64,000 bases of DNA, taken from positions 1-64,000 of the forward strand of contig JAFUPP010000039.1 in assembly GCA_017481115.1 (NCBI GenBank), in the 5' to 3' direction. The notes under the pieces were generated by a model. The model was not told where the DNA came from and searched no databases. It was given only the letters and a program-made list of their open reading frames with translations. This document shows, piece after piece, positions 1 to 32,455 of the stretch (its first letter is position 1; the number at the start of each line of letters is the position of its first letter). Both the position numbers and the translations under genes were made by a program. Source of the stretch: Clostridia bacterium (GTDB taxonomy: Bacteria; Bacillota; Clostridia; Oscillospirales; Acutalibacteraceae).

Positions 1-1259
1 AATGCCTTCGATAGCCGATACGTCTACCTTGCGGTCAAGACCCTGCTGTTTGCAGTATTCGACGGGATCTGCACCATCCTCGATAACGGCAATGAGTATC
101 TTCTTACCTGCGTTACGGTTGATGTCACCCTTTTCGACCATCTTGATAATGGCGGCAAGGTCCTTTGCGGTGATCTGCAGCTCGTTAAGGGTATCTCCCT
201 TCTTACGAAGCACGCCCGCACAGTCGGTGAGTATCCAGACCGATGTTTCCTTTGCGTTACAGCCGAGAGCAACGGTTTCATCAAGAAGTGATGAAAGCTT
301 GTGGTTTGAAAGAAGCATCTCTATCTCGACGTCGGGAATGCCTGCAGCGGCATACTCCTCTGCCTTTTCGTCCACCGCAACCGGCTTTTGTTGCTTGATT
401 TTTTCAAGCCATTCGTCATCAATGATGATGGGCATAAGGTTTGCATCGGGGAAGTAGCGGTAATCCGCCTCGGTCTCCTTATTACGCATAGCAAAGGTCT
501 TGCCCGAAACATCATCAAAACGTCTTGTTTCCTGAACAAGCTCTTCGGTCTCAAACTCAAGAGCATCCATGTGACGCTGTGACTCGTAACGGATGGCACG
601 TTCTATGGCTTCAAAGGAGCTCATATTCTTGATTTCGGTTCTTACGCCGAACTCCTCGCTTCCTTCGGGACGAACCGAGATGTTTACGTCGCAACGCATT
701 GCACCCTCTTCGCACTCGGAGATACCGCCCGATCGGAACATTGATTTAAGCTTGTTAAGGTAGGTAACTACCTCTTCAGCACTTCTAAAATCGGGCTGAG
801 TAACTATCTCGATAAGAGGAACACTTGTACGGTTGAAGTCAACAAAGGATGATCTTCCGCCGTGAACCAGCTTTCCTGCATCCTCCTCCATATGAATCTG
901 CTTAATGCGGATATCACGGTTGCCCTGCGAGGTCTTGAGGGTAACGCATCCATCGGTGCAGATGGGGTGGTTAAGCTGGGTTATCTGATATGCACAGGGC
1001 AGATCGGGATAATAGTAATTCTTTTTATCAAATGTAGTGTAGCGATTGATGTTACAGTTGAGCATAAGACCCGCTGTAACCGCAAGCTCTACGACCCTTT
1101 TGTTCATTACGGGAAGCATTCCGGGCATACCGGAACAGGCGGGACAAACGCAGTCGTTAGGCTCGTTTGCGGCAGAATGACCACCGCAAGAGCAAAATAT
1201 TTTTGATTTTGTATCAAGTTCTACGTGGGTCTCAAGACCGATGACAAGCTCGTATTTCA
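1..1259 (-). CDS. gatB: Asp-tRNA(Asn)/Glu-tRNA(Gln) amidotransferase subunit B, C-terminally truncated by the window edge
   Basis: A manual reverse-complement translation from 1259 downward gives MKYELVIGLETHVELDTKSKIFCSCGGHSAANEPNDCVCPACSGMPGMLPVMNKRVVE...QIHMEEDAGKLVHGG...YRYFPDANLMPIII with no stop through position 1. This is the canonical GatB N-terminus. It is absent from the ORF track because its stop lies outside the window. Confidence 0.9.
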
Positions 1260-1262
1260 TAA

Positions 1263-2447
1263 TCATTCACCCATCCTTTCAACACTTGATGCAATACTTA
1301 AAAGTGTGGATTCATCAAAGCTCTTGCCCAAAAGCTGAACCTTACCGCTTACAAGTGCAGGGGTTCCTATAAGGTTAGCAAGTGCTGTGAACACACCCTC
1401 TTCAAACACCTTGCCAAAGGCATCGGAAATATCGTAGGCTTCATACTCGGTCTTACTGCAGACGGGGGTAAGAAGTGCATCGTAGTTTTTCATTATTTCG
1501 GCAAAACGCTCACTGATGACCCTACGTACTCTGAGGGATTTATCATAGCAGTCTTTGTAGCGGTTTTTGGAAAGAACATCCGAGCCGTAAAGAATTACCG
1601 ACTTTGTAAGGAAGTTAAAGCCCTCTGTTCTTGAATTTACGTAAAGCTCGTCTATATTTCTGTATTCGGCGGCACGGTGACCGTACTTAACGCCGTCATA
1701 GCGGGATACGTTGTTGCAGGTCTCGGCAGTCATAAGTATCTGCCAGGCAACATTTGCGGTATCAAAGATGTCAAAGGATATCTCCTCCACCTTAACACCC
1801 TGCTTTTTAAGGCTTTCGGCATATTCTTTAACTATGCCCTGTGTTTTACCATCGGCCTTTTCAAGAAGCTCCTTTATAATTGCGACACGTTTGCCCGAAA
1901 CATCGGCATTTACGGTATAATCATAGCTCTCATTTTTAAGACTTGTACCGTCCTTTTCATCGTGACCTGCAATTATATCCATTATTTCCTTTACACCCTC
2001 AACATCTGATGCATATACACCAGGCTGTTCGCCGGATGCGGCACAGGAGATGACTCCGTAACGTGAAACGGTACCGTAGGTGGGCTTTAAGAAGTCTACA
2101 CCCGAAAGTGCAGCGGCACGACGTGTAGCACCGTTCATATCAACGCCGAGTGCTGCCTTTACGCTGCCCTCTTTGACAAGCTCTGCAGCGGCACCGACCA
2201 ATTTTTCACTTTTTTCGCCTGTGTAGGAAAACTCACCTACTAAATCAAGACCAAATTCACCGACGTTTGTTTTGCCCGATACGGTATAGCCCTTGTTTTC
2301 AAGGCGAACCACCGCTTCGGCACTAAAAAGAGGTTTAAAGCCCTCGAGTATTCTGGATCCTGCATAGGCGGGAACACCCTTTACAAGAAGGGTATCGTCT
2401 ACTGCAATATTTCCTTTAGTATTTATCTCGGTTGCGTAGTATTTCAT
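1263..2447 (-). CDS. Amidase-signature (GatA-like) protein of about 395 aa. Two of the three catalytic-triad residues appear to be replaced.
   Basis: The protein aligns to GatA (LKPTYGxVSRYG, IAGHD). The GGSSGG cis-Ser motif is replaced by TGEKSEK and the nucleophile motif GSDTGGSIR by GVDMNGATR. It is short (395 aa versus about 485 aa). The ATG at 2447 is preceded by AGTGAGGTG. The GTG at 2456 is an alternative start. Confidence 0.75.
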   Translation of the reverse strand: MKYYATEINTKGNIAVDDTLLVKGVPAYAGSRILEGFKPLFSAEAVVRLENKGYTVSGKTNVGEFGLDLVGEFSYTGEKSEKLVGAAAELVKEGSVKAALGVDMNGATRRAAALSGVDFLKPTYGTVSRYGVISCAASGEQPGVYASDVEGVKEIMDIIAGHDEKDGTSLKNESYDYTVNADVSGKRVAIIKELLEKADGKTQGIVKEYAESLKKQGVKVEEISFDIFDTANVAWQILMTAETCNNVSRYDGVKYGHRAAEYRNIDELYVNSRTEGFNFLTKSVILYGSDVLSKNRYKDCYDKSLRVRRVISERFAEIMKNYDALLTPVCSKTEYEAYDISDAFGKVFEEGVFTALANLIGTPALVSGKVQLLGKSFDESTLLSIASSVERMGE

Positions 2448-2457
2448 TTTCTGCACC

Positions 2458-4533
2458 TCACTTTACAAGTCTGGGTACCTGCCAGCTGTCCTCGCTTCTC
2501 TCGGGAGCACCCGAAAGAAGTTCTTCTCTTGTGAAGGGCTGTTTACGCTCATCCTCACGAAGAACATTGGTCATAGGCATTACGTGTACCATTTCTTCAA
2601 CATTTTCGGTGTCTATTGTGTTTAAAATCTCCTCGTTTTTGCTCATCATCTTAAAGATATCCTGCATTACGTTTTCTTCCTCATCGGTAAGGGATATCTG
2701 ATTGAGCTGCTGGGCATTTGAGAAGGTGGAACGCTTTTGTCCTGCACCTCGGCCGCCCGAACCCGCTGTCATACGTGATGCAAGTGCGTTGCCGTTTCCG
2801 AGAAGGTGTACGTCCTCAAGCTGCTGATTGGTGACCTCACTAGGTGCACCGAGCAACAGATCCTGTGCATTACCGTTAAGCGGGAATGCAATAACGTCAA
2901 GTATCTTTTCTTCATCGGTAAGAAGCATTACCATACGGTCAACACCGGGAGCCATACCTGCGTGGGGAGGTGCGCCGTACTGGAACGCGTTGTAAAGCGC
3001 GTTGAATCTTGCTTTAAGCTCATCCTCGCTGTATCCTGCGATATCAAAAGCCTTTTTCATTATGTCTACATCGTGGTTACGAACCGCGCCCGATGCAAGC
3101 TCTATACCGTTACATACAAGGTCGTACTGATATGCAAGTATCTCGGTAGGCTCCTTGTTTAAAAGAGCATCCATTCCGCCCTGCGGCATAGAGAAGGGGT
3201 TGTGTGTGAATATGGTGTCGCCCGTTTCCTCATCGTTTTCGTACATGGGGAAGTCTACAACAAAGCAGAATTCGAATGCATCGTCTTTAATAAGGTCAAG
3301 CTGTTCCTTTTTAGCAAGCCAGGTACGGATGTGTCCTGCCTTCTTTTCGGTGTCATTTTTCTTGTCGTCACAGATAAAGAAGAGTGTTTCGCCCTCCTTA
3401 ACACCTGTGATATCTATAATTTCCTTCTTCTTTGCATCGCTTAAGAACTTTGCGATAGGTCCTGCAAACACGCCCTCTTTAAGGGTGATGTAACCAAGTC
3501 CGCCAAGACCTACCTCGGCACTTGTAGCAAACTTTAAGGAATCCTCAAAGAATTTGTTTGACTTACCTTTGCAGTCGGCAACGATACCGCGAACGGGTCT
3601 GCCCTTAAATGCAGGGAAATCAACATCCGAGAAAAACTCGGTAAGGTCGCATATCAAAAGGGGGTTACGAAGGTCGGGTTTATCCGAGCCGTAGAGCATC
3701 ATCGACTCTGCATAAGGGATACGTCTGAAGGGCTTTTCGGTAATTCTTTTATCCGAGAAGGTCTTGAAGGTGTCGTAAATGACATCCTCGCATATATCAA
3801 GTACCTCTTCTTGTGTTGCAAATGCCATTTCAAAGTCGAGCTGGTAAAATTCACCGGGTGAACGGTCGGCTCTGGCATCCTCATCTCTGAAGCAGGGTGC
3901 TATCTGGAAGTATTTATCAAAGCCCGATACCATAAGCAGCTGCTTGAACTGCTGGGGAGCCTGCGGAAGTGCATAAAACTTGCCCGGATGCTTACGGCTG
4001 GGTACAAGGAAGTCTCTTGCGCCCTCGGGCGAGGATGCGGTAAGAATAGGTGTCTGCATCTCAAGAAAATCCTTCTGCTCCATTTTTTGACGCAAATGAC
4101 GGATGATCTTTGAACGCATTACGAGATTATTGTGGTTTTTGGGGTTACGAAGATCAAGAAAACGGTATTTAAGACGAAGCTCGTCCTTGCTCATTCTTGA
4201 TGCTCTGACCTCAAAGGGAAGCATATTCTTGCTCTTGCCCAAAACGGTAAGAGAATCGACAATAAGCTCAACATAACCGGTGTCGATCTTTTCGTTTACG
4301 GTGTCGGGATCCCTCTTTTCAACCCTACCGCTTACCGAAATGACCGTCTCGCGATTTACGTTTTTAAGAAGCTCCTCATTATGAATGACCACCTGGGTCA
4401 CACCCGTGTAGTCACGAAGATCAAGAAATATAACGCCGCCGTGATCTCGAATAACATCCACCCAGCCGGCAAGCTCAACCGTCTGACCGATATGCTCATC
4501 ACGGATATCGTTACAATGCAGCGTTCTGTACAT
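2458..4533 (-). CDS. aspS: Aspartyl-tRNA synthetase fused in frame to a C-terminal GatC domain (691 aa)
   Basis: The N-terminal roughly 590 aa are bacterial AspRS (MYRTLHCNDIRDEHIGQTVELAGWVDVIRDHGGVIFLDLRD...FRDEDARADR...PPHAGMAPGVDR...LGAPSEVTNQQLEDVHL). The frame then continues without a stop through a Gly/Ser-rich linker into a GatC-like segment. That segment reads LTDEEENVMQDIFKMMSKNEEILNTIDTENVEEMVHVMPMTNVLREDE...SWQVPRLVK and is followed by TGA at 2458-2460. The ATG at 4533 has GGAGG 8 nt upstream. Confidence 0.85.
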   Translation of the reverse strand: MYRTLHCNDIRDEHIGQTVELAGWVDVIRDHGGVIFLDLRDYTGVTQVVIHNEELLKNVNRETVISVSGRVEKRDPDTVNEKIDTGYVELIVDSLTVLGKSKNMLPFEVRASRMSKDELRLKYRFLDLRNPKNHNNLVMRSKIIRHLRQKMEQKDFLEMQTPILTASSPEGARDFLVPSRKHPGKFYALPQAPQQFKQLLMVSGFDKYFQIAPCFRDEDARADRSPGEFYQLDFEMAFATQEEVLDICEDVIYDTFKTFSDKRITEKPFRRIPYAESMMLYGSDKPDLRNPLLICDLTEFFSDVDFPAFKGRPVRGIVADCKGKSNKFFEDSLKFATSAEVGLGGLGYITLKEGVFAGPIAKFLSDAKKKEIIDITGVKEGETLFFICDDKKNDTEKKAGHIRTWLAKKEQLDLIKDDAFEFCFVVDFPMYENDEETGDTIFTHNPFSMPQGGMDALLNKEPTEILAYQYDLVCNGIELASGAVRNHDVDIMKKAFDIAGYSEDELKARFNALYNAFQYGAPPHAGMAPGVDRMVMLLTDEEKILDVIAFPLNGNAQDLLLGAPSEVTNQQLEDVHLLGNGNALASRMTAGSGGRGAGQKRSTFSNAQQLNQISLTDEEENVMQDIFKMMSKNEEILNTIDTENVEEMVHVMPMTNVLREDERKQPFTREELLSGAPERSEDSWQVPRLVK

Positions 4534-4770
4534 AGTATTACCTCCCAAAATTGCAAAAATAAAAGCCCCGAGAATATTTTCATATTCTCGGGACGAGTAA
4601 ACAAAATTCACCCGCGGTGCCACCCGCATTGATGCAAAAAAGCATCCTCTTTTAATATAAGATTGTGTAAAAACGGAGCGTTCCCAAACCTACTACTCAT
4701 CCCAAACGCGCTTTCAGTCGCCGACGCGTTCTCCCTGACGGACTTTCCATAAAGGCCGAGTTTCCATTAG
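4534..4770 (-). promoter_or_regulatory. T-box riboswitch leader of the aspS-gatC-gatA'-gatB operon, including an intrinsic terminator at 4563-4597
   Basis: The minus-strand sequence AATGCGGGTGGCACCGCGGGTG (4605-4626) matches the T-box consensus GGGUGGNACCGCG. It is followed by the hairpin CCCGAGAATAT-gaaa-ATATTCTCGGG and the run GCTTTTATTTTT immediately upstream of the aspS RBS. A stem-I-like GGAG...GGGAACG-CTCC segment suggests an AAC (Asn) specifier, but that call is tentative. Confidence 0.8.
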
Positions 4771-4771
4771 T

Positions 4772-4799
4772 ATTATAGCAAAAATTACGGCTTTGTCAA
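4772..4799 (-). promoter_or_regulatory. Sigma-A type promoter for the T-box leader and aspS
   Basis: On the minus strand, TTGACA (4799-4794), a 16-nt spacer and TATAAT (4777-4772). Confidence 0.7.
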
Positions 4800-4855
4800 C
4801 AAATTTTTTTGCCGCTAAAACTATCTTATGAAGATTTTTCGTCTTTATTCCGGGT

Positions 4856-5101
4856 CTAATATTTTTTATCAAACGAGAGCTCAATACCGTATGCTCTCTC
4901 GGGTATCTCAAGTTCTGTCTGATTTTCCTCACAGTTTTTTCCGCAGGAGGATAATTCCGTATAGAAACGCAATCCGGCTTTGCGCTGAAAATGCTCACAT
5001 ACATTATCGAGTGCGGCAACGGTTTTGTTTTTCAGATCACACATTCCAAAGTTTACGTTCAGATAAGGATAATGCTCACAACACCAGCAGCGTACTTCCA
5101 T
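4856..5101 (-). CDS. Small cysteine-rich hypothetical protein (81 aa)
   Basis: The ATG at 5101 has AGGGGG 8 nt upstream. The sequence is MEVRCWCCEHYPYLNVNFGMCDLKNKTVAALDNVCEHFQRKAG..., with protein-like composition and several Cys pairs. I recognise no homolog. Confidence 0.35.
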   Translation of the reverse strand: MEVRCWCCEHYPYLNVNFGMCDLKNKTVAALDNVCEHFQRKAGLRFYTELSSCGKNCEENQTELEIPERAYGIELSFDKKY

Positions 5102-5412
5102 ATAATAACCCCCTAAATAAAAAAGCGTACCCCGAAGAGTACGCCGAAAAAGTGCTCCTCGGTAGATTACCACATCACACCGACTATCTGCATAAGCACA
5201 AAGTTCAAAGAACACCTTTTACCAGGTTATTCTTTGTGCTTATTTTCACGATAGTCGCAAGTTATTAAAATATGTGATGTGGTATGGCTTTATTTTATCA
5301 TAACATCTGTAATTTTACAATACAAAATTTATAAGCATTCTCTGTGTCCCGTATTTATATAGTATTACGGACGGTCAGGGATACCTGTCTCTACAAATTG
5401 CCCGTTTGCGAC

Positions 5413-5585
5413 TGTCAATGAGGTGCACTTCATATTTTTATTTTTTTGTCAATGATGTGTACCTCAGGTTTTCAAAAAATAACAACTTTCTGTCAATGAG
5501 GTACACCTCATATTCTGTAATAATTTTGTCAATGTAGTGTACCTCATATTTTTTAAAAAATCTGTCAATGAGGTGTGCTTCATAT
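5413..5585. repeat. Five tandem copies of a 23-bp motif TGTCAATGAGGTGYACYTCATAT, each containing a 16-bp imperfect palindrome, spaced 34-44 bp apart
   Basis: The copies lie at 5413-5435, 5447-5469, 5491-5513, 5527-5549 and 5563-5585. Copy 3 contains the perfect palindrome ATGAGGTACACCTCAT. The motif produces the spurious repetitive ORFs 5438..5623 and 5464..5661. Confidence 0.85.
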
Positions 5586-5680
5586 TTAAAATTTGATAGC
5601 AGAATGTGAAAGCGGGCGAACACAGTTCGCCCCTACTTGCTACCAACAACCACGAAGCCAAGGACTTTCCCGTCTACACG

Positions 5681-5729
5681 GCAATATATCAAAAAAACAC
5701 CGAGCGGATCACTCCGTTCGGTGCTTTGT
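5681..5729. terminator. Bidirectional intrinsic terminator downstream of rny
   Basis: A run of seven A, then the hairpin CACCGAGCGG-atcact-CCGTTCGGTG, then CTTTGTTTTTTATTTT. Confidence 0.7.
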
Positions 5730-5732
5730 TTT

Positions 5733-7280
5733 TTATTTTGCAAAGTCAATGGCACGGGATTCACGGATAAGGTTTACCTTGACCTGACCGGGATATTCCA
5801 GCTCATCTTCTATCTTTTTGACTATGTCGCGGGCGACGATAACCATCTGGTCATCCGAAATAACCTCGGGCTTGACCATAATACGGATCTCTCTACCTGC
5901 CTGAATAGCAAAGGATGAATCGATTCCGTTGAAGGAATTGGCAATTTCCTCCAGCTTTTCAAGACGCTTGATATAGTTTTCGATATTCTCACGTCTTGCA
6001 CCGGGACGTGCTGCCGAAACAGCATCCGCCGCCTGAACGATAAATGCGACAACGCTCTTTGCCTCAACATCGCCGTGGTGAGCGTGGATGGCGTGAACCA
6101 CCGCTTCGCTTTCCTTATACTTCTTGGCAACATCAACACCAAGCTGTATATGGCTTCCCTCCATCTCGTGATCGAGTGCCTTACCGATATCATGTAAAAG
6201 ACCTGCACGTCTTGCAAGGTTGATATCTGCACCGATCTCACCTGCGATAAGACCGGAAATATAGGAAACCTCCATTGAATGATTAAGAACGTTCTGGCCG
6301 TAGCTTGTACGGTAATGAAGCTTACCGAGAAGCTTAACAAGCTCGGGATGGAGACCTCTGACCGATGCATCGAGCATAGCCTTTTCGCCCTCGCTCTTGA
6401 TGACCGACTCGACATCTCTCTTTGCCTTTTCGTACATTTCCTCGATCTTTGCGGGATGAATTCGTCCGTCGGCAATTAACTTCTCAAGGGTTACACGGGC
6501 GATCTCTCTGCGAACGGGATCAAAGGATGATACGGTAATGGCTTCGGGTGTATCGTCGATAATAAGGTCAACACCCGTAATGGTTTCAAGGGTACGGATG
6601 TTTCTGCCCTCTCTACCGATTATTCTACCCTTCATTTCGTCATTAGGAAGGGCAACTGTTGAAATGGTACATTCTGAAGAATGGTCTGCGGCACAACGCT
6701 GTATTGCCTGAGAAAGAACCTCTCTTGCCTTCTCGTCGCACTCGTCACGAAGCTTTGCCTCAAAATCCATGATTTTGCCGGCCTTTTCGTGTGAAAGCTC
6801 TTCATCAAGAGCACGAAGAAGCTGCTCCTTAGCCTGCTCCTTGGTAAGACCCGAGATTTTTTCGAGCATATCAAGCTGACTTTTCTTGATAGTTTCTGCC
6901 TCTTGGAGCATTTCCTCTGCTTCCTTCTGGCGTTTGGCTATCTTTTCTTCCTTAATTTCAATGTTCTCTGTCTTTCTGTCGATAGACTCTTCTTTTTGCT
7001 GGATTCTTCTTTCCTGACGCTGAATTTCGCTGCGTCTTTCTCTAAGATCCTTTTCTGTTTCATTTCTCATCTGGAAGACTTCATCCTTGGCTTCCATAAT
7101 GATCTCTTTCTTTCTTGCTTCTGCTTCTTTGATGGCTTCATTCAGACGCTGAGTAGCCTGTTTCTCGGCAGAACCGAGTATTCCTTCAGCCTTGCGTTTA
7201 CGGAAAATTACGCCGAGCGCAAACCCGACTATGCCGAATACGACAGCTCCGATGGCGCCACCAATCAAATACTGTGTCAT
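5733..7280 (-). CDS. rny: Ribonuclease Y
   Basis: An N-terminal transmembrane helix, then a coiled-coil region, a KH domain and an HD domain ([21 protein letters not shown]). The ATG at 7280 is preceded by AAAGGAGGTG. Confidence 0.95.
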
Positions 7281-8110: not shown

Positions 8111-9358
8111 ATGCGCAAAAGAAGAATAATATCCGCTGTTTCATTCATTTTATCCCTCACCCTGATGCTGACCTTTTGGGGTTGCGGTACCACCGTAAAG
8201 GCGGAGGATCTTATGGAGGGTATTACCGCCTCAAAGGTGGACGGAAAAAATAGTGACGAAAAATTTTTAGATTCACAGTTAAACTTCGCAATACAGCTTC
8301 TTCGTCAAAACGGCGGTGCGACCGACAACACCGTTATGTCCCCTGCATCTATCGCACAGGCTCTTGCAATGGTGGCAAACGGCACCGACGGCGAGACCCT
8401 AAAGCAGATAGAAACGGTGCTTGGCAAGGGTATTTCGATCGACGACCTTAACCGATACTACTATTCATTTTTGCAAAATTTAAGATCTGACAATACGCTT
8501 ACCTCGGTAAACTCTGTTTGGTTTAATGAAACCATTGCTGTAAAAAGGGATTTTCTGCAAAAGAATGCCGATTATTACGGTGCAGATGCATATGCCACTC
8601 CCTTTGACGCAGATACAGCAGAGGACATCAACAACTGGGTAAGCAACAAGACCAACGGACTTATACCCGAAATAGTTGACAGTGTTGATTCGTCAATGGT
8701 AAGTATTATTCTCAACGCGATGTACTTTAATGCCGAATGGGAAGAAAAATATGAGGATACCGACCTTAAGGATTACCAATTCACTTCGGTTACGGGTGAA
8801 AAGCAGAGGGCTACCTATATGATAAGCTACGAGAATTATATCAGCGACAACAAAACATTCGAAGGTATAATGAAGCATTACAAGGGCAAAAAATACGCCT
8901 TTGTAGCGGTAAAAAGTATGGACAAGAGAATAGGTGCAGAACCCGACTACACAAAATTTATAACCGAGGATCTTAATTCCGAGGCTTTAATGAAGGCAAT
9001 GAAGAATATCAACGAAGGCGCCAGAACCTATATTCCAAAATTTAAAATTGAATATGCAGATTCTCAAATAGAAGCTTTGAAAAAAATGGGAATAACAGAC
9101 GTATTCGACCCTGAAAAAGCAAATTTATCTGGCATTTCAAACAACTCTTCCTATATTTCATCTGCTGTACACAAGGCTGTTATTGATGTAAACGAGCACG
9201 GTACCGAGGCGGCAGCGGCAACGCAGATGACCGATGTCATTTCCTCGTCAAGCGGCAAAACCAAAACCGTCGCCTTTGACTGTCCGTTTATCTATATGAT
9301 AATAGATGCCGAGACCTTACTTCCCGTATTTATCGGAAGTGTAACAAGCATGAACTAA
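8111..9358 (+). CDS. Secreted serpin-family protease inhibitor
   Basis: Signal peptide followed by serpin motifs: NTVMSPASIAQALAMV, the FNAEW shutter region, the hinge GTEAAAAT and then a reactive-centre loop, and a C-terminal FDCPFIYMIID. Confidence 0.85.
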   Translation: MRKRRIISAVSFILSLTLMLTFWGCGTTVKAEDLMEGITASKVDGKNSDEKFLDSQLNFAIQLLRQNGGATDNTVMSPASIAQALAMVANGTDGETLKQIETVLGKGISIDDLNRYYYSFLQNLRSDNTLTSVNSVWFNETIAVKRDFLQKNADYYGADAYATPFDADTAEDINNWVSNKTNGLIPEIVDSVDSSMVSIILNAMYFNAEWEEKYEDTDLKDYQFTSVTGEKQRATYMISYENYISDNKTFEGIMKHYKGKKYAFVAVKSMDKRIGAEPDYTKFITEDLNSEALMKAMKNINEGARTYIPKFKIEYADSQIEALKKMGITDVFDPEKANLSGISNNSSYISSAVHKAVIDVNEHGTEAAAATQMTDVISSSSGKTKTVAFDCPFIYMIIDAETLLPVFIGSVTSMN

Positions 9359-12236: not shown

Positions 12237-13411
12237 TAGTGCTCCTGGATGATGTCCATAAGCTCCTTTGCGGTCTTGCCCTCTTTGATGAGGTTGTAGT
12301 AGTTAAGAATAATATCGTATGCTTCATTTGTGTTATCGAGCTGAGCGATATTCTTTAATATCTCCTCTGCGGGAGCAGCTGCATTTTCATCGAAGGGGAA
12401 GCACATTGCGGCGGCAATACCAAGGCAGATGTACTTGGGTGTTGTGCCGTGCTTCTGACAGTTGAGAAGTGCACCGACAAGACGGTCGTTGGGATCAAGC
12501 TTTCTCTTGATGTCGTTACCGACACGCTTTACGGTGTCGCCGAGCTGACGGTTTTTGAATCTGTAAAGAAGGTCCTCTACGTGCTCGTCGAGTTCGCGGT
12601 ATGCTACGTTATGCTCCTCTGCGAGTGCGATTGCCGACTCCTTCATTGCTCTGCCGACAAGTATCTCAACGTAAGGATCATCCATGCTCTGCCAGATGTA
12701 ATCTACGCCCTTTACTGCACCGAGATATGCGCTGATTGCGTGTCCCATATTGTGAATGAAGAGCTTTCTTTGAATAAAGAACTCAAAGGGGGTAAAGGGA
12801 ACCATATTTTTGATGTTGGGGATCTCACCCTTGAATGCTGCCTTATCAACGGGAAGGATACCAAAGCTCTCTACACAGACACGAAGGGGGTTGTCTCCCT
12901 GCATTTCGGGGGTCTGAACGGGTACCATTCTGCCTATTGATGCTTCAACAAAGCCGACCTTCTCGTCAAGAAGCTTCTTTTCCTCGTCGTTAAGAAGCTT
13001 TGCGACGTTTTCCTTAATATAGCTGTCTGCACCGATAAGGTTTTCGCAGATGATGATGTTAAGGGGCTTTGCATCGGGATTTTCCCATCTCTTTTTAAGA
13101 CCTGCGGCAATATTGCCGAAGATAAACTTAAGTACATTTACGCCGATAGCGGTGCACATAACGTCTGCGGTTGCGATTGCTTCTGCAATATCCTCAACCT
13201 TGGTACCGTCAACGCAGGAAACATTCTTTACCATTGTTTCCTCATAGGTATCCTTATAGAGTATTCTTACGGGATACTCGTGCTGTGTGTTAAGCTGTTC
13301 AATAACCTCAGGCTTTACATCGATAAAATAAACCTCATAGCCGCTCTCTGATAAAAGCTGACCGATAAAGCCTCTGCCGATATTACCGGCACCGTACATT
13401 ACTGCTTTCAT
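12236..13411 (-). CDS. mtlD: Mannitol-1-phosphate 5-dehydrogenase family oxidoreductase
   Basis: The N-terminus [20 protein letters not shown] matches MtlD ([20 protein letters not shown]). Downstream motifs [19 protein letters not shown] and [16 protein letters not shown] also match. The ATG at 13411 is preceded by AAAGGA. Confidence 0.85.
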   Translation of the reverse strand: [391 protein letters not shown]

Positions 13412-13449
13412 ATTTTTATATCCTTTCATAAAAGAAATTTATATTTATT

Positions 13450-14427
13450 TTAGAACATCAAAGAAACAACCTCTTGCTTTGTGATGCCCGAAAAATAGTC
13501 GTCTGTATTAATGTTATCAAAAACCTTTTGTATCTCCTTTGGATTAAACGGCAGATCTTTAAGTAAAGCTTCTATCTCGCCTGTGTCCTTCTTTGAAAAA
13601 TAGTCACCAAAGAATTTGATATCCGAAATCCTGCCATCGCGAAGGGAGAGACGGCACTCTAAAATTCCGCCGTCAAATTTTTTGCGGTTTATGATAGAAA
13701 AGTCTTGTTTAAAGCCAAAATTATACTCCCACCTATCGTACTTTTCACGCTGTATCTCCCTGATTTTTTGCATATCGCTTTGAGAAAGCGTATACATTTC
13801 GGCGTTTTTGTGGGTGTTAAGCACACTTTCACAAAGACCTTTTATAAAATCTTCGGGAGAAACAGGATTTTTCAGGTGGTCGTTTATATTTGTAACCCTG
13901 CTTTTAACACTTTTTATACCCTTTGACTGCACCTTTAAAGGATCGGGATTGAGTACACCCGTCATTTGTGATACATCGGCTCCAAGCATTACGGTGCCGT
14001 GATGCAAAACGCGGTCTTTATATATGCACTCGGCATTTCCCGAAAACTTTTTACCCATTATCAGCAGATCGTTCCTGCCCGAAAGTGTGGCGGTGATGCC
14101 AAGGGATTTAAGGTATTTAATTATGGTATCGGAGAAAAAGGAGTAGTCGGAAAAACGCTCCTCACCCCGCAATATGTAGGTAAAGTTTACATTACCAAGG
14201 TCATGAAAGACGGCTCCGCCGCCCGTCATTCTGCGAACAACCGAAATACCCTTCTCTTCAGCAAATTCACGGTCTATTTCGGCATATGCGTTTTGATTTT
14301 TACCAATTATTACGCTTTTTTCATTGCGCCAGAGCATAAAAAACTCATCATCGGTATGCTTTAAAAGATATTCTTCTGTTGCAAGGTTCACCCTTACATC
14401 GGTAGTTTCTAAAATTAAAACCTTCAT
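13450..14427 (-). CDS. lplA: Lipoate-protein ligase A
   Basis: EEYLLKH...VIIGKNQNAYAEID...GISVVRRMTGGGAVFHDLGNVNFTYI. It is 20 nt upstream of mtlD on the same strand. Confidence 0.85.
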   Translation of the reverse strand: MKVLILETTDVRVNLATEEYLLKHTDDEFFMLWRNEKSVIIGKNQNAYAEIDREFAEEKGISVVRRMTGGGAVFHDLGNVNFTYILRGEERFSDYSFFSDTIIKYLKSLGITATLSGRNDLLIMGKKFSGNAECIYKDRVLHHGTVMLGADVSQMTGVLNPDPLKVQSKGIKSVKSRVTNINDHLKNPVSPEDFIKGLCESVLNTHKNAEMYTLSQSDMQKIREIQREKYDRWEYNFGFKQDFSIINRKKFDGGILECRLSLRDGRISDIKFFGDYFSKKDTGEIEALLKDLPFNPKEIQKVFDNINTDDYFSGITKQEVVSLMF

Positions 14428-14438
14428 ATTATTTTAAG

Positions 14439-14468
14439 GTGCAACCGAGAGAAATCTCTCGGTTGCAC
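14439..14468. other. Perfect 13-bp stem / 4-nt loop hairpin between the E1 gene and lplA, with no adjacent U-tract
   Basis: GTGCAACCGAGAG-aaat-CTCTCGGTTGCAC. It is followed by about 200 nt rich in TTGAA/TTCAA half-palindromes. Confidence 0.6.
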
Positions 14469-14695
14469 TAAAATTTGTCTGTGGCTTTCCACCCCGAAAA
14501 ACCTGAATATACCATTCAAATCACAAAACTTTTGAACATTGAAATTCAAACGAATCGATTTGAGACTGAATTATTTTGTGGCGGATTTGAATGTTGAAAA
14601 AGCAGGAAGGCTTTGTGCCTTTCAATTTTGAAACATTTGAATACGACCAAAAGAAACTGTCTCAGGCGGTTCGGGTGGGTTGAAATGTTCCTATA

Positions 14696-17161
14696 TTAGA
14701 CGCCCATCTTGCTCTTTCTGAGGAGCTCGGTTGATGAGAAGTCAACACCTGCATTGTAGCCGGGAATGGGCATGATCTTTGCATGGATAGCATCGAGGAT
14801 CCACTCGGGCTGCGGGAAGAACTCGTTATCATACTCGAACGGAGGTGTGATCCAGTTCTTTGCACCGACAACAACGGGAGGTGCATCGAGGTAATCGAAT
14901 GCGAGCTGAGTGATGTTCTGTGCCATATCGTTGAGGATGTTACCTCTGGTTACAGCATCGGAAGCAAGAATGATCTTACCGGTCTTCTTAACGCTCTCGA
15001 TAACCTTGTCATAGTTGAAGGGAACGACTGAACGTGCGTCGATAACCTCTGCGGAGATACCCTTTTCCTCAAGAAGCTTTGCAGCATCCATTGCACGATA
15101 AAGGGTTGCACCGATGGTAAGGATGGTAACGTCTGTACCCTCTTTTCTTACTGCGGGCTCGCCGAAGGGGATCTCGTAGTAATCTGTGGGAACGCCTTCC
15201 TTAACGAACTGCTCACCCATATCGTAGATTCTCTGGCTCTCGAAGAAGATTACGGGGTCGGTTCCTGCGAGGGCTGTGTTCATAAGACCCTTAGCATCGT
15301 AAGGAGTTACGGGGAATACGACCTTAAGTCCGGGAACGTGAGCACAAAGTGCACACCAGTCCTGGCTATGCTGTGCGCCGTACTTAGCACCAACGGATAC
15401 ACGGAGAACTACGGGCATCTTGAGTCCGCCGCAGCTCATTGCCTGCCATTTTGCCATCTGGTTGAATACTTCGTCACCGCAGCATACGATGAAGTCACAG
15501 TACATAAGCTCTGCGATTACGCGGCCGCCTGCCATACCGTAGCCAACTGCTGAACCGACGATAGCTGACTCTGAAATGGGAGCGTTGAAGAGTCTGTGAT
15601 AAGGAAGTGCTTCGGTAAGTCCACGATAAACTGCGAATGCACCGTTCCAGTCACGAACGTCTTCACCGTAGGAGATGAGGGTGGGATCCTCATAGTACTT
15701 GTCAATAATTGCCTCGAAGATTGCATCACGGATGTTGTAGAGCTTGAGCTTGGGAACTGCCTTGCCCTTATCGTCAAATGCATATCTTGCCTTTGTTGCG
15801 TTCTTCTTAACAACCTCGTTGTCTTCCTTCTTCATACGAACAACAGGCTCACGGTCATCCATCTTTGCAACGTGCTGATTTGAGAACATAACGTTTTCGA
15901 TGTGTGCGGGGTTCTTCTCGTAATCTGTGTAGGGAGAAACCTCGTGATCTGAAGCGATCATAAACATTCTGTGGTTACGGTCGATGACCTTTTCCTTAAC
16001 AGCCTCGATCTCCTTCTTGGTTGCAACCTTTGCGTCGATGATCTGCTGGGGGAATACGGTGAGAGGATCAAGCTGTGCCCACTCTTCAACCTCTTCCTTG
16101 GTTCTGTAGGAGGAAACGTCTGAGGTGGAGTGACCGCTGAGACGGTAGGTGATAACGTCGAGAAGGACGGGTCCCTTACCTTCCTTAATGGTCTTGATCT
16201 TTCTCTTATAGCAATCAATTACTGCGAGGGGGTTCCAGCCGTTGATTCTCTCAACGTTGAACTGGTTGGGAGCAATTGCACCAAGTCTTGCAAGGTCGTC
16301 ATAGCACATGGTCTCGCCCTTTGTCTGACCGCCCATGCCGTAGTGGTTGTTGTTGAAGTTGAAGATGATGGGAAGGCCGCCCTTATAGCCATCCTCCCAA
16401 AGCTCTCTGAACTGGTCCATATTAGCAAAGTTCATTGCTTCGTAAACAGGACCTCTTGCTGCAGCACCGTCACCTGCGTTTGCAACTACGATACCGCCCT
16501 TCTGGTTGCACTTCTTATAAAGAGCAACACCTGTTGCGATGGGGCCTGAACCACCAACGATTGCGTTGTTGGGGAATATACCGAAGGGAAGGAAGAAAGC
16601 GTGCATACTTCCGCCAAGTCCGCGGTTAAAGCCTGCGTCCTTTGCAAAAAGCTCACACATAAGACCGTACATAAAGAAGTCACGTGCAAGATCCTTTACG
16701 TTGTCTGCGGTTGAGTACTTCTTAACGATCTCATAGTTCTTACCGCCGTTGAACTCTTCCATGATCTTGGTAAGCTCTTCGTCGGAAAGCTTCTTAATGG
16801 CTGAAAGTGCCTTTGCAATAACCTCGTGATGTGAACGGTGGGTACCGAAGATGAAGTCATTTGCATCAAGGTTATAGGCCTGACCTACTGCGGTTGCTTC
16901 CTCACCGATTGCAAGGTGTGAGGGGCCGGGATAGGTGAATTCCTTGTTGTTGTAGTTACCCTGAAGCTTGATTGACTGAAGCATTGTTTCAAACTCGCGG
17001 ATTGCTACCATATCTGCATACATACCGAGAAAATCTTCCTTTGAGAAGTTATCCTTTTCATCGGCAACTGTTTTGTTGTATGAGCAGACCTCAATGTCCT
17101 TAAACTTAATTTTTCTTTTTTCGAACTTGGGGCCGGGCTCAATGTACATTGACTTAGGCAT
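14696..17161 (-). CDS. 2-oxoacid dehydrogenase E1 component with alpha and beta subunits fused (821 aa)
   Basis: The N-terminal half is a TPP-binding E1-alpha (GGSMHAFF...ANAGDGAAARGPVYEAMNFA). The C-terminal half is E1-beta (ISYGEDVRDWNGAFAVYRGL...MYCDFIVCCGDEVFNQMAKW). RBS AAGGAGAG. Confidence 0.85.
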   Translation of the reverse strand: MPKSMYIEPGPKFEKRKIKFKDIEVCSYNKTVADEKDNFSKEDFLGMYADMVAIREFETMLQSIKLQGNYNNKEFTYPGPSHLAIGEEATAVGQAYNLDANDFIFGTHRSHHEVIAKALSAIKKLSDEELTKIMEEFNGGKNYEIVKKYSTADNVKDLARDFFMYGLMCELFAKDAGFNRGLGGSMHAFFLPFGIFPNNAIVGGSGPIATGVALYKKCNQKGGIVVANAGDGAAARGPVYEAMNFANMDQFRELWEDGYKGGLPIIFNFNNNHYGMGGQTKGETMCYDDLARLGAIAPNQFNVERINGWNPLAVIDCYKRKIKTIKEGKGPVLLDVITYRLSGHSTSDVSSYRTKEEVEEWAQLDPLTVFPQQIIDAKVATKKEIEAVKEKVIDRNHRMFMIASDHEVSPYTDYEKNPAHIENVMFSNQHVAKMDDREPVVRMKKEDNEVVKKNATKARYAFDDKGKAVPKLKLYNIRDAIFEAIIDKYYEDPTLISYGEDVRDWNGAFAVYRGLTEALPYHRLFNAPISESAIVGSAVGYGMAGGRVIAELMYCDFIVCCGDEVFNQMAKWQAMSCGGLKMPVVLRVSVGAKYGAQHSQDWCALCAHVPGLKVVFPVTPYDAKGLMNTALAGTDPVIFFESQRIYDMGEQFVKEGVPTDYYEIPFGEPAVRKEGTDVTILTIGATLYRAMDAAKLLEEKGISAEVIDARSVVPFNYDKVIESVKKTGKIILASDAVTRGNILNDMAQNITQLAFDYLDAPPVVVGAKNWITPPFEYDNEFFPQPEWILDAIHAKIMPIPGYNAGVDFSSTELLRKSKMGV

Positions 17162-17185
17162 TTTATTCTCTCCTTTTAGGTTAAA

Positions 17186-18556
17186 TTATTTAATATCGTA
17201 CAGTGCTTCACGAATTACTTCGCAGACTGTGGGATGCGGGAATACGATCTCCTTGATGTTCTGGATCTGCATTTCGGTCTCGACCATAAGGGCTGCACCG
17301 TAGATTATCTCTGAAGCGTAGCTTCCGATAAGATGAACACCAAGTAAACGGTTGTACTTTTTATCAACAATGAGCTTGCAGATACCGTCTCCGCCCTCGT
17401 TTTCGGCAAGATATCTGCCTGAGAACATCATAGAGACCTTTGCTACCTCTACATCGTAGCCTGCAGCCTTTGCCTGTGCTTCGGTAAGACCGACAGCGGC
17501 AACCTCGGGGTTGGTGTAGATGACCGAAGGAATTGCGTTATAACGCATAATGTCCTTCTTACCGAGCATTGTGTTTACTGCAACCTCACCCTCGCGGTAT
17601 GCGGTGTGGGCGAGCATAACCTTGCCGTTTATATCACCTGCGGCAAAGAGTCCGGGAACGTTGGTACGCATCTGATCGTCGGTAACAACTGCTCCGCGCT
17701 CCATATATACGTTAAGGTTTTCAAGGCCGTAGCCTGTGGTGACTGCACGTCTGCCGATTGCACAAAGAACCTTGTCTGCTGCAACCTCGTTTGCCTTGCC
17801 GTTTTCTTCAAAGCAAACCTTACCGTCGCCAACCTTGGTTACCTTGCAACCGAGCTTAAACTCGATTCCTGCCTTTGCATAGTTCTTTTCAAGGATCTTT
17901 GCAATTTCGATATCTGTGGGTCCGCCGATATGATCAAGCATCTCAACAACGGTGACCTTTGAGCCTACCATTGAGTAGTAGGATGCCATTTCCATACCGA
18001 TTACGCCGCCGCCGATAACAACAAGCTTTTCGGGGATAGCTTCAAGATCAAGGATCTCGCGGTTGGTAAGAACAAATCCGCTCTCTACACCCTCACGAAG
18101 ACCGGGGATGGGGGGAACGACTGCCTCACTACCTGCGCAAAGAAGCATATACTTTGCAACGTACTTTTCGCCGTTTGCCTCAACCTCAAAGCCCTCCTCG
18201 GTCTTACCGAGAATGGTACCGAAGGCATTAACGACCTTTACGCCGTGCTTCTTCATTGCCATACCGATTCCGCCGACAAGGGTGGAAACGACCTTATTCT
18301 TTCTGGCAACTACCTTTTTCTGATCAATCTTTACGTTTTCTGCGGTTACACCGTAAACGTCAGAATGAAGTGCATGTTCGTAGAGCTTACCCGAATGGAT
18401 AAGAGTCTTTGAGGGGATACAGCCTTCGTTAAGGCAGACACCGCCAAGTGCTCTCTTTTCGATAACTACGGTCTTAAGACCGCCTTCGGATGCTCTTTCG
18501 GCAGCGTTATAGCCTGCAGGGCCGCCACCGAGTACGATAAGATCAAATTTTTCCAT
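17186..18556 (-). CDS. lpd: Dihydrolipoyl dehydrogenase (E3)
   Basis: GGGPAGY FAD-binding motif, the redox disulfide GGVCLNEGCIPSK, and an NAD-binding fold. RBS AGAGGTG. Confidence 0.9.
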   Translation of the reverse strand: MEKFDLIVLGGGPAGYNAAERASEGGLKTVVIEKRALGGVCLNEGCIPSKTLIHSGKLYEHALHSDVYGVTAENVKIDQKKVVARKNKVVSTLVGGIGMAMKKHGVKVVNAFGTILGKTEEGFEVEANGEKYVAKYMLLCAGSEAVVPPIPGLREGVESGFVLTNREILDLEAIPEKLVVIGGGVIGMEMASYYSMVGSKVTVVEMLDHIGGPTDIEIAKILEKNYAKAGIEFKLGCKVTKVGDGKVCFEENGKANEVAADKVLCAIGRRAVTTGYGLENLNVYMERGAVVTDDQMRTNVPGLFAAGDINGKVMLAHTAYREGEVAVNTMLGKKDIMRYNAIPSVIYTNPEVAAVGLTEAQAKAAGYDVEVAKVSMMFSGRYLAENEGGDGICKLIVDKKYNRLLGVHLIGSYASEIIYGAALMVETEMQIQNIKEIVFPHPTVCEVIREALYDIK

Positions 18557-18567
18557 ATCTACACCTC

Positions 18568-19893
18568 TTATTTAGCAAGAAGAACCGAGAAGTTCTCGAG
18601 TGCCTTCTTCATCTCAACAAGGAACTTGGAGGCGGGAGTGCCGTCTACAACCCTGTGATCGTAGGTGAGTGAAAGTCCCATTGCGGGATATGTCTTGATC
18701 TCGCCGTTTACCTCCTTGACTCTGGTCATAATGGTGTCTACACCAAGGATGCCTGTCTGGGGAGGATTGATAACCGGAGTAAAGGACTCAATACCCATTG
18801 AGCCGAGGTTGGAAACGGTGAAGGTTGCACCCTGAAGATCGTCGGGTGAAATGCTTCCGTCCTGAGCTGCCTTTGCAAGACGCTTAACCTCTGCTGAAAT
18901 CTCGTTAAGGCTCTTCTTATCAGCGTTCTTTACGGTGATAACGAGGAGTCCTCTGGGAGTATCTACTGCAACACCGAGGTTTACGGCGTTAAAGTAACGG
19001 ATGGTCTCACCGTTATCTATGCAGTGAGCGTTAAGGCCCTTGAGTGCCTCGTTTTTAAGTACTCTTGATACTGCGAAAAGGATGATATCGTTGAGTGTGA
19101 TGTTAGCAAGACCCATATCCTCACCTGCTGCCTTGACCTTCTTACGGAATGCCATGACCTCGGTAGCATCGAAGCTTGAGTTGTGGGTAAGCTGGGGAAT
19201 GGTGGAAAGCGAAAGTGCCATATTCTTGGCTATAGCCTTTCTGACGCCCTTCATCTTCTCATCAACATACTCTGCTGCGGGCTCTGCTGCTACTGCTGCG
19301 GGAGCGGCTGCACCGATATCGCCAACTGCAAACTTACCGCCGATACCTGTTCCTGCTGCACCTGTGAAGTCACCTGCTGCTGCGTATGTTGCGGTGGGTC
19401 CGTTTGCGATGAGAGTACGGATGTCTCTTTCAATAATTCTTCCCTCTGCGCCGGTGGGAACTGCAAAGCGGTAGTCAACGCCGCTCTTTCTTGCAAACTC
19501 CTTTGCTCTGGGGGAGATCTTAACAAAGCCTTCTGCTGCCTCTGTCTTGATTACGACGGGTGCTGCAGCGACCTCTGCCTTTACTTCTTCCTTAACCTCG
19601 GCAGGAGCTTCCTCCTCTGCCTCGCCTGCGGGTGCAAACTCGGCTACCGATTCACCTTCGTTTCCGATAACGCAAACGTTGGTCATACAGGGGATGTCGT
19701 CCCCTTCTTCTGCAAACAGTTCAAGTACGATTCCGTCAACGGGAGCTTCCTCGTCGGCGGTGGACTTATCGGTTTCGTATGAGAACAAAACTTCGCCAGC
19801 CTTGACTGCATCGCCCTTTTTCTTGTGCCATTCGGTAAGAATACAGCTTTCGACCGAAATACCGACCTTAGGCATCATTACGGGTGTTGCCAT
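18568..19893 (-). CDS. Dihydrolipoamide acyltransferase (E2)
   Basis: Lipoyl domain (SYETDKSTADEEAPVDG), an Ala/Pro-rich linker, and a catalytic domain ending ...LSLTYDHRVVDG. RBS AAAGGAGG. Confidence 0.9.
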   Translation of the reverse strand: MATPVMMPKVGISVESCILTEWHKKKGDAVKAGEVLFSYETDKSTADEEAPVDGIVLELFAEEGDDIPCMTNVCVIGNEGESVAEFAPAGEAEEEAPAEVKEEVKAEVAAAPVVIKTEAAEGFVKISPRAKEFARKSGVDYRFAVPTGAEGRIIERDIRTLIANGPTATYAAAGDFTGAAGTGIGGKFAVGDIGAAAPAAVAAEPAAEYVDEKMKGVRKAIAKNMALSLSTIPQLTHNSSFDATEVMAFRKKVKAAGEDMGLANITLNDIILFAVSRVLKNEALKGLNAHCIDNGETIRYFNAVNLGVAVDTPRGLLVITVKNADKKSLNEISAEVKRLAKAAQDGSISPDDLQGATFTVSNLGSMGIESFTPVINPPQTGILGVDTIMTRVKEVNGEIKTYPAMGLSLTYDHRVVDGTPASKFLVEMKKALENFSVLLAK

Positions 19894-32400: not shown

Positions 32401-32455
32401 GAGCAACCAAAACGACTAAAACTAATGAGACTATGGGTTTAAATCTTTTTTTCAT
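29411..32455 (-). CDS. Secreted multidomain type I phosphodiesterase / nucleotide pyrophosphatase (AlkP superfamily) with two N-terminal beta-sandwich modules and two C-terminal LamG-like domains
   Basis: Signal peptide. Two repeats (SYKSRTQGKMFISIDG and SYTSKSQGKMTVSVDG). NPP-like core (VIILGADGAGAW, SWGSLMTGVIPSLHGL, FNAPDSAGHSYGYG, VTTDHGG). Two concanavalin/LamG-like repeats (FAVSMWHK..., FAIATWIKP...). RBS GGAAGGTG. Confidence 0.8.
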   Translation of the reverse strand: MKKRFKPIVSLVLVVLVALTSVLFSVTAVASTAAVTYEAEELEEVVFSDNWSERKSYFLSGGYGMTTVSGGTIDFAFDGSIIELVSYKSRTQGKMFISIDGAAEEIVSLYSDSMDNDFKTVIFSKSLESGEHTASIRVFGKACLDAVKINGSFGSIEEADVTYESFEADELEPTLTGEWNTKNTFLLSTRKALFTNTGGSTMQFKYTGKGFKIGSYTSKSQGKMTVSVDGGEPVEVNLYDDSIDVNFDQIVYTSSDLEYGEHTVDISATGKVYVDNIFINKEFNYKHVIILGADGAGAWFEEANTPETDAIFANGATTYTGICANPSISAQSWGSLMTGVIPSLHGLTNEITANTPYAMSDEYPTIFRIVREAMPSAVLHSYTAWNNINIGIVENGINVVKGTGDEDGVTQSAINAIKNASPELMFVQFNAPDSAGHSYGYGTQAHLDAIEQTDARIGRIYDAVVEAGILDDTLFIVTTDHGGTGKGHGGWTDDEKYIFFGATGKTINKTNELSLYIRDIPATVCNALGIEGRDNWDSYIPQNFFTDNLTPPARPASNVDSFATPTQGSAGYINNFVSSDKIVAMYNFDGDLTAANNADTGTAVGSVTYNSGIYGNGAVVSNGNYITIPNISVGSNSFAVSMWHKLDGTFSTTNEGILFGNKDWASGKNPGYLVSLRKLGYALNAADGTNRADYKNKNIPYGGWSHSLFVIDRENRKMKMYFNFEEIISVDLVEALDGKSFDTGLPFTVGADGNGNWSFPTGITVTVDDLMILNVAPDATDITNLKNYYNNYYFGATTDKELTSYVNNNKLTAAYTFDGNANALKGTNATEIGTVEYIAGYYGQSASVNSNSLLQLDDVTFGTDSFAIATWIKPNKITSDTVIYANSDWTKGLNSGIVLSLRSNHFKANVGYNGTIRGDIVFYPDDVPTGWVHTILEFDREKNLMNFYYNFSKVYSIELDEGFKGISFDTDLPFVVGADGKKACPTNAYIDDLLIFNGTLTSAEINNLKDYYTK

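Follow-up and report, generated by a model that had tools for sequence, protein, structure and literature searches.

How can a tRNA-dependent amidotransferase work when the subunit that should release its ammonia has no active site? GatCAB is the textbook case of a glutaminase coupled to a synthetase by a gated ammonia tunnel, and most bacteria, as well as organelles, depend on it for life. The question is raised by a stretch of 64,000 nucleotides from a Clostridia bacterium of the family Acutalibacteraceae (positions 1 to 64,000 of contig JAFUPP010000039.1, assembly GCA_017481115.1), to which we refer as the window. On its reverse strand, at 1263..2447, lies a gene for a protein of 394 amino acids (aa) which has the GatA fold and is devoid of the Ser-cisSer-Lys triad. 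We call the gene gatA* and its product GatA*, and number the catalytic residues K79, S154 and S178 after S. aureus. A first-pass annotation of the window had described a glutaminase-dead GatA retained in a remodelled transamidation unit, a description with which the active site, the mode of selection, the fold and a change in GatB, presented below, all agree.

A GatA fold with a dismantled glutaminase site

The longest open reading frame of gatA* extends over 1263..2456 on the reverse strand and begins with GTG; homologues start at the ATG at 2447, which gives 394 aa. Comparison with the Pfam profile PF01425 (Amidase), as suggested in the first-pass annotation, places GatA* in the amidase-signature family with E = 8e-54. 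Against the NCBIfam gatA equivalog model TIGR00132 it scores 256 bits, under the cutoff of 481, a canonical control (P0139) reaching 592 bits. The motifs LKPTYGxVSRYG and IAGHD, on which the original comparison with GatA was built, are both kept. The protein is about 90 aa shorter than GatA, as had been remarked, and we could locate the deficit: some 60 N-terminal residues, the GGSSGG loop and a C-terminal loop are missing.

The fate of the triad was followed in HMMER alignments to four GatAs of known crystal structure (3h0l_A, 3al0_A, 2gi3_A and 2df4_A), all of which agree residue for residue. The catalytic lysine is gone, IAV-K79-DN corresponding to IAV-D17-DT in GatA*. The GGSSG segment carrying cis-Ser154 is deleted, and the nucleophilic serine is replaced, GSDTGG-S178-IR corresponding to GVDMNG-A107-TR. 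The earlier reading of the nucleophile motif was thus correct, and so was the loss of the cis-serine, but the sequence TGEKSEK, which had been taken for the altered cis-Ser motif, sits just upstream of the deletion gap. The loss of the lysine had not been noticed before, nor had that of the glutamine-binding residues. The latter, an arginine and an aspartate which we take to be R358 and D425 of S. aureus, are V284 and G351 in GatA* according to a 101-sequence alignment, while 47 of 50 canonical sequences have Arg and 46 of 50 have Asp at these positions. In yeast GatA glutamine is bound by R334 and D418, and E330 is a conserved glutamate (PMC4027206); the position of the latter is occupied by L280 in GatA*. 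A triad present but shifted along the sequence was not found: the crystal-structure alignments and the 101-sequence alignment place the same substitutions, and a motif search found neither GGSSGG nor GSDTGGS anywhere in the protein.

The fold itself is preserved. The AlphaFold (AF2) model of GatA* has a predicted local distance difference test score (pLDDT) of 95.9, and Foldseek matches it best to two GatA chains, 2df4_A and 3h0l_A (TMq 0.93-0.95). GatA* is, in short, a GatA in which the glutaminase site has been dismantled.

Next, we asked how widely gatA* is conserved. Scanning one genome per GTDB species, we found 141 genomes with a close relative, fetched 80 of these loci and so obtained 81 orthologues including that of the window. 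All 80 come from metagenome-assembled genomes (MAGs) labelled Clostridia, Acutalibacteraceae or Oscillospiraceae, for which ruminants and other animals had been sampled (rumen, caecum, colon or faeces). The unit aspS::gatC-gatA*-gatB is present in every one of them, with identities to the window of about 84% for AspRS, 75% for GatA* and 84% for GatB. More than 120 protein clusters share 76-100% identity with GatA*, all of about 394 aa (391-395). No internal stop occurs in any of the 81 gatA* orthologues, in contrast to what a decayed pseudogene would show. The proportion of nonsynonymous differences (pN) is 0.18 for gatA* and the GatC domain alike; GatB has 0.10, the AspRS core 0.08 and the linker between AspRS and GatC 0.28. 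These values are well below the proportion of synonymous differences (pS), which is about 0.73-0.76 across the operon genes (0.73 for gatA*). Since synonymous divergence is saturated, we give pN and pS and not a precise ratio of rates. The orthologues share 113 invariant residues, including D18, D68, R109, R110, E140 and W235 of the remodelled pocket. The old nucleophile position, in contrast, drifts (Ala in 51, Ser in 25 and Thr in 5 orthologues) and holds 16 different residues in the wider family. Evidently, gatA* is under purifying selection and is no pseudogene.

A full HMMER scan over 1.8 billion representative proteins extended the family well beyond this clade. It returned many relatives of 356-430 aa with Asp or Glu at the position of K79, no GGSSGG, and 'D-x-N-G-x-x-R-R' in place of GSDTGGSIRQ, together with full-length triad-less GatAs of 450-485 aa. 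Over the wider triad-less family the K79 position is D, E, A, S or T, and the short forms have two newly acquired residues, Arg110 and Asn245, in common. In every locus that we read, from 100% down to 35% identity, the genes stand in the order gatC-gatA*-gatB, usually after aspS. In a crude neighbour-joining tree the window GatA* falls inside a clade of 17 representatives. A single origin of all triad-less GatAs is unsupported, the tree, rough as it is and built on a sample biased to relatives of the query, requiring about ten state changes; this suggests that the triad was lost several times independently.

A Clostridiaceae MAG (L088:9681-16247; we designate related loci by such handles) carries two sets in tandem, as does L089: gatC, a triad-less gatA of 484 aa and gatB are followed by gatC, a canonical gatA of 494 aa and gatB. 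Dead and live complexes can therefore coexist. The dead 484-aa copy of L088 is named 'GatA' by NCBI.

The operon: partner genes and asparagine T-box

The remaining subunits and the synthetase are intact, as had been claimed for the operon at large. The 5' part of gatB (1..1266, reverse strand) comprises about 420 of 476 codons before it runs off the window, and its start overlaps the gatA* stop in ATGA. The full protein is available from L001, a contig 100% identical to the window. It is above three GatB equivalog cutoffs, among them NF004012 (567 bits, cutoff 338) and TIGR00133 (497 bits, cutoff 315), and can be aligned over its full length with GatB of A. aeolicus (3h0l_B, 420 bits). It retains E10/H12, the motifs HMEEDAGK, PLIEIV and CDVNIS, the helical part and the YqeY tail.

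The gene preceding gatA* is aspS::gatC (2458..4533, reverse strand), whose end lies two bases before the gatA* reading frame. It encodes 691 aa: a bacterial-type AspRS with GAD domain, a poorly conserved linker and a C-terminal GatC (about 2461-2727). The Pfam domains are tRNA-synt_2, tRNA_anti-codon (OB), GAD and GatC, the last with E = 7.7e-12; AspRS scores 741 bits against NF001750 (cutoff 443) and the GatC domain 58.5 bits against TIGR00135 (cutoff 47.1), so that the AspRS-GatC fusion already seen in the first pass stands. The same 691-aa gene is called in L001, and a 723-aa reading frame from 4629, whose first 32 codons run through the leader RNA, is artefactual. A family of AspRS/GatC fusions, NF009460 (PRK12820), likewise has GatC at the C-terminus of AspRS. 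The window protein reaches only 454 bits against its cutoff of 1379, hence is not a member and probably represents an independent fusion. Relatives with 50-57% GatA* identity carry a separate gatC.

Comparison of GatB sequences revealed a change that accompanies the loss of the triad. The lysine of the motif PDxP-K-xYQ (K88 in S. aureus GatB), present in all five bacterial GatB crystal sequences, is cysteine in the window GatB, whose translation reads YYYPDLPCAYQ. It is also cysteine in 78 fetched loci of the window clade. In diverged relatives the position holds Cys (L004, L006, L109), Ala (L088-B1, from the dead set of the tandem), Thr (L090, L092), Ser (L007) or Gly (L101), cysteine prevailing through the window clade and its relatives down to 50% identity. 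Altogether, K88 is lost in nine of nine diverged GatB lineages whose partner GatA has no triad and kept in seven of seven GatBs with a canonical partner, including L088-B2, whose contig also encodes a dead pair, and those of L100 and L140. The exact probability of this association is about 1e-4 if lineages are taken as independent. As far as these sequences tell, the change in GatB is coupled to the loss of the GatA triad.

Upstream of aspS, a sigma-70-type promoter (4772..4799, reverse strand; TTGACA, 16 nt, TG-n-TATAAT, 12/12 matches) is placed to drive both a leader and the operon, and its TTGACA is conserved across related loci. The leader (4565..4770, reverse strand) has the architecture of a T-box: a Stem I with the specifier AAC (Asn) at 4682-4680, the T-box sequence AAUGCGGGUGGCACCGCGGGU with a UGGC bulge at 4630-4611, and a 13-bp terminator followed by a U-run at 4594-4565. 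A GGGAGG ribosome-binding site lies between the terminator and the aspS ATG at 4533. Against Rfam RF00230 the leader scores 42 bits (E = 1.4e-7), under the gathering threshold of 93; at gathering thresholds Rfam gives no match in the window and the T-box becomes visible only with an E-value threshold, so standard annotation would miss it.

Conservation speaks for the element nevertheless. The leader is present in about 60 loci with covarying helices and the antiterminator/terminator layout kept, and in the RNAalifold structure an invariant AAC, with a purine (A/G) after it, is on the 3' side of an internal loop above a covarying basal helix, which is the specifier position. L006, a 50%-identity relative with separate gatC, has a complete T-box (124.5 bits), for which the Rfam alignment shows GAA-A-AAC-A, and the layout of the window leader matches it. 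Weaker matches are found in L092 (40 bits, AAC read) and upstream of aspS in L109 (39 bits). AAC is an asparagine codon, and the UGGC bulge fits a G73 discriminator. The leader sequences thus point to operon control that responds to asparagine, or tRNA(Asn).

L101 has, at 3949-4021, a gene for tRNA-Asn(GUU) with U1-A72 and G73; a dead-GatA operon and an asparaginase-like gene are located about 1 kb away. Beyond the promoter, about 0.9 kb (4810-5730) without a long open reading frame separate it from rny (RNase Y, 5733-7280). One 81-aa gene is called in this gap in L001 and L002, and terminator-like hairpins are present at 5145-5124 (reverse strand) and 5698-5723 (forward strand).

The source of nitrogen

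With the active site of GatA lost and its gene conserved, the enzyme must obtain nitrogen in another way. We consider it probable that GatA* is the non-catalytic scaffold subunit of a GatC-GatA*-GatB complex, an asparagine-responsive Asp-tRNA(Asn) amidotransferase which uses ammonia not made by GatA. As GatA* is unable to hydrolyse glutamine, the nitrogen would be ammonia that GatA did not produce. Uncharged tRNA(Asn) would pair with the AAC specifier and the UGGC bulge, prevent termination and switch the operon on. The AspRS moiety of the fusion, presumably non-discriminating, would charge tRNA(Asn) with aspartate, and the fused GatC would tether GatA*-GatB to the synthetase, forming a covalently tied transamidosome. 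GatB would then phosphorylate the aspartate side chain with ATP and amidate it, yielding Asn-tRNA(Asn). The ammonia would probably come from the ammonium-rich milieu of gut and rumen, and in about half of the species, including the source of the window, an asparaginase/GatD-like enzyme may add to it. GatA* itself would be retained since folding and assembly of GatB and GatC require it. With NH4Cl replacing glutamine, trimeric amidotransferases do transamidate (PMC4027206), and GatC is required for folding of GatA and for complex formation (PMC2330236).

The first-pass annotation had named three mechanisms, namely use of free ammonia, a scaffolding or regulatory pseudoenzyme, and a different tRNA-dependent reaction. 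They are not separable by sequence. Free ammonia and scaffold merge into the single model just described, which explains the data best, and the different reaction is a rival of its own. The asparagine T-box leader, the lost lysine of GatB and the asparaginase/GatD-like gene past the window edge had escaped the first-pass annotation.

No second amidase gene was detected by tblastn with four canonical GatAs in the 64-kb window and 1.27 Mb of flanks of 87 related loci, equal to about 1-3% of each genome. Likewise, Pfam annotation of 32 of the 39 window reading frames of at least 200 aa, again covering about 1-3% of the genome, gave no AsnRS, GlnRS, AsnA or AsnB.

Several points weigh against a scaffold supplied with free ammonia. 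The remodelled pocket is strongly conserved over the 81 orthologues, which is not obviously required of a pure scaffold, and it could bind a ligand. The use of ammonia would follow only from the absence of another donor site. The adjacent asparaginase/GatD-like gene, found in 31 of 69 loci, offers a different source of nitrogen. Because a canonical gatCAB stands in tandem in one distant lineage, the dead complex may be an accessory enzyme with a different role. GatB K88 reportedly lines the ammonia tunnel (Nakamura 2006; Zhao 2012 for H. pylori K89). If it does, the tunnel would have been abandoned together with the glutaminase. Among other putative tunnel positions, T175 of GatA is replaced by Met, and E124 and E125 of GatB are kept. 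The conserved aspartate of the SSxDQ motif (D211 in our own numbering) is glutamate in GatA*.

The asparaginase-family gene deserves closer attention. In L001 it lies at 12665-13552, downstream of gatB and just past the left edge of the window, starting 52 nt after gatB. It is present in 31 of 69 informative loci, that is in about 45% of species including the source genome, and in 29 of these 31 it stands on the same strand about 45-60 nt after gatB. Its occurrences are spread among L008-L084 and L094-L109, with L100, L101 and L104. An AlaX-like gene (tRNA_SAD and DHHA1, a free-standing homologue of an editing domain; L011:12663-13817) is found downstream in 18 loci and follows the asparaginase-like gene in 15 of them.

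Could this protein be the real amide donor, hydrolysing glutamine or asparagine and feeding GatB as GatD feeds GatE, so that the glutaminase of GatA became redundant? Its position right behind gatB invites the idea, no solved structure matches its profile better than P. abyssi GatD (1zq1_A, E = 6.5e-23), GGT-I and HGTDT are invariant, and relatives accompany aspS and gatCAB genes in three further arrangements, converging on dead-GatA operons in L101 and L104. However, in 38 of the 69 loci, whose GatA* is no less dead, the 1.3-8.5 kb downstream of gatB do not contain the gene; only decayed remnants are left in L058, and in L011 and L039 gatB is directly followed by the next conserved gene. Absence and decay show that the gene is dispensable for keeping a dead GatA. 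Relatives also stand beside a canonical, triad-bearing gatCAB in L100, where aspS belongs to the operon, and in L140. The protein has no N-terminal GatD domain, scores 82 bits with the GatD models (TIGR02153 / NF003217) against a cutoff of 324, its match beginning at model position 63, and is under asparaginase cutoffs as well. The lysine of the Thr-Lys-Asp triad aligns with a near-invariant Gln171. Moreover, a conserved hairpin separates the gene from gatB, and the protein evolves fast, with 45-59% identity where GatB has about 85%. We therefore hold it unlikely that the GatD-like protein is the donor on which the enzyme depends, even though it may supply ammonia where it is present.

A bolder proposal combines the elements into a chimera of GatCAB and GatDE, tethered to AspRS through the fused GatC, with GatA as scaffold, the tunnel abandoned, of which the joint loss of the GatB lysine and the triad would be the sign, and nitrogen supplied by the GatD-like protein, recruited to a bacterial GatB. 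In the strongest form of the idea, a large clade of gut Clostridia would have no other way to Asn-tRNA(Asn). We mention it as a speculation in which we place little confidence.

A role without any amidation appears improbable. The complex would in that case be a binding or regulatory particle, which sequesters or protects Asp-tRNA(Asn) or hands it to a canonical GatCAB elsewhere. The pairing of dead and canonical gatCAB in L088 and L089 would suit such a particle, and the lost lysine of GatB could mark a broader loss of catalysis. GatB, however, keeps every alignable Mg/ATP and catalytic motif, is above its equivalog cutoffs and has the lowest pN after AspRS. An asparagine T-box driving AspRS together with a dead particle would, in addition, lead to mischarged Asp-tRNA(Asn) without repair.

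Very improbable, in our opinion, is new chemistry, whether the GatA* pocket (D17, D68, R109, R110, E140, W235) handles another donor or GatB transfers a nucleophile other than ammonia. This is the different reaction of the first-pass annotation, and it draws on pocket replacements that do not vary in 81 species, drift being confined to the old nucleophile position, on the conserved gains Arg110 and Asn245, and on the persistence of cysteine in GatB. In the wider family, though, the same positions vary (K79 to D/E/A/S/T, K88 to C/A/T/S/G), which speaks for loss rather than for a shared new catalytic device, and the asparagine T-box fits ordinary Asn-tRNA synthesis.

A decaying pseudogene, or an alignment artefact concealing a shifted triad, would accord with the low TIGR00132 score and with the label 'hypothetical protein' that GatA* bears in NCBI MAGs, but we reject both and grant them next to no credence, contradicted as they are by the 81 uninterrupted orthologues of fixed length, by pN well under pS, by the concordant alignments, by the absence of GGSSGG and GSDTGGS and by a confident model that superposes on GatA.

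Known counterparts and implications

Canonical GatCAB, as known from S. aureus (2DF4) and A. aeolicus (3H0L), has the same three products in the same order and a GatA fold matched by GatA* at TM 0.93-0.95; the window GatB and GatC are within the curated family cutoffs. The differences are that GatA* has neither the triad nor the glutamine-binding residues nor the N-terminal 60 residues, that GatB is without K88, that GatC is fused to AspRS, and that glutamine is no donor through GatA*.

In its logic, a clostridial AspRS and amidotransferase under T-box control, the window operon resembles one of C. acetobutylicum. The T-box there reportedly responds to tRNA(Asn), and that operon is not known to encode an inactive GatA. 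According to the paper that cites it (PMC4206432), Saad 2012 described an additional AspRS and GatCAB operon under a T-box, serving tRNA-dependent synthesis of Asn and Asn-tRNA(Asn). As far as this citing paper allows a comparison, the window operon differs in that GatC is fused to AspRS and GatA is dead.

In archaeal GatDE, a GatB paralogue takes ammonia from an asparaginase-family subunit, and the window operon has a GatD-like gene after gatB in about 45% of species. This GatD-like protein, unlike GatD, has no N-terminal domain, stays under the cutoffs, has Gln for Lys and is dispensable, and GatA* and GatC remain. Carbamoyl phosphate synthetase I, which has switched to free ammonia, keeps an inactivated glutaminase module as a structural or regulatory part. 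It offers a precedent by analogy, its fold (a class I GATase domain) and its reaction being unrelated and not tRNA-dependent. The catabolic amidase complex AtzE-AtzG, presumably derived from GatA-GatC, is the opposite case: AtzE has kept an active triad and left the tRNA pathway, whereas GatA* has lost the triad and kept the tRNA context. The structure (PDB 6c62), whose title speaks of 'an unexpected vestigial protein complex', is among the structural matches of GatA* and shows that a GatA/GatC pair can be repurposed.

A full-text literature search found no report of a dead, triad-less or ammonia-dependent GatA, in line with the earlier suspicion that the machine is possibly undescribed. This GatCAB variant with a pseudoenzyme as A subunit is real, conserved and previously unannotated, and its mechanism we infer.

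The rest of the window contains several further features. A serpin (PF00079, E = 2.7e-79) is encoded at 8111-9358 on the forward strand and occupies the same place in L001 and L002. A 2-oxoacid dehydrogenase cluster (13450-19893, reverse strand) of a host presumed to be a gut anaerobe comprises a lipoate-protein ligase, an 821-aa E1 with fused alpha and beta parts, E3 and E2, and adjoins a DeoR regulator. Three very large CE2_N proteins are encoded on the reverse strand at 29411-32455 (1014 aa), 34754-39007 (1417 aa) and 39288-42833 (1181 aa). The first adds phosphodiesterase and laminin-G domains, the second adds Exo_endo_phos, and the third has CE2_N only; they are probably surface or secreted enzymes.

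For annotation, the short triad-less forms are at present labelled 'hypothetical protein' and the full-length dead forms 'GatA', the latter wrongly implying glutamine-dependent activity. The AspRS::GatC fusion under an asparagine T-box would be a compact, genetically defined transamidosome for structural work. If our interpretation is true, the structural role of GatA would be separable from catalysis, and nature would provide tunnel-loss variants in which K88 of GatB gives way to five different residues, in each case where GatA has lost its triad. For this step, metabolic models of Clostridia from rumen and gut would have to draw on ammonia instead of glutamine, and the coupling of a glutaminase to tRNA-dependent amidation would be dispensable in ammonia-rich habitats.

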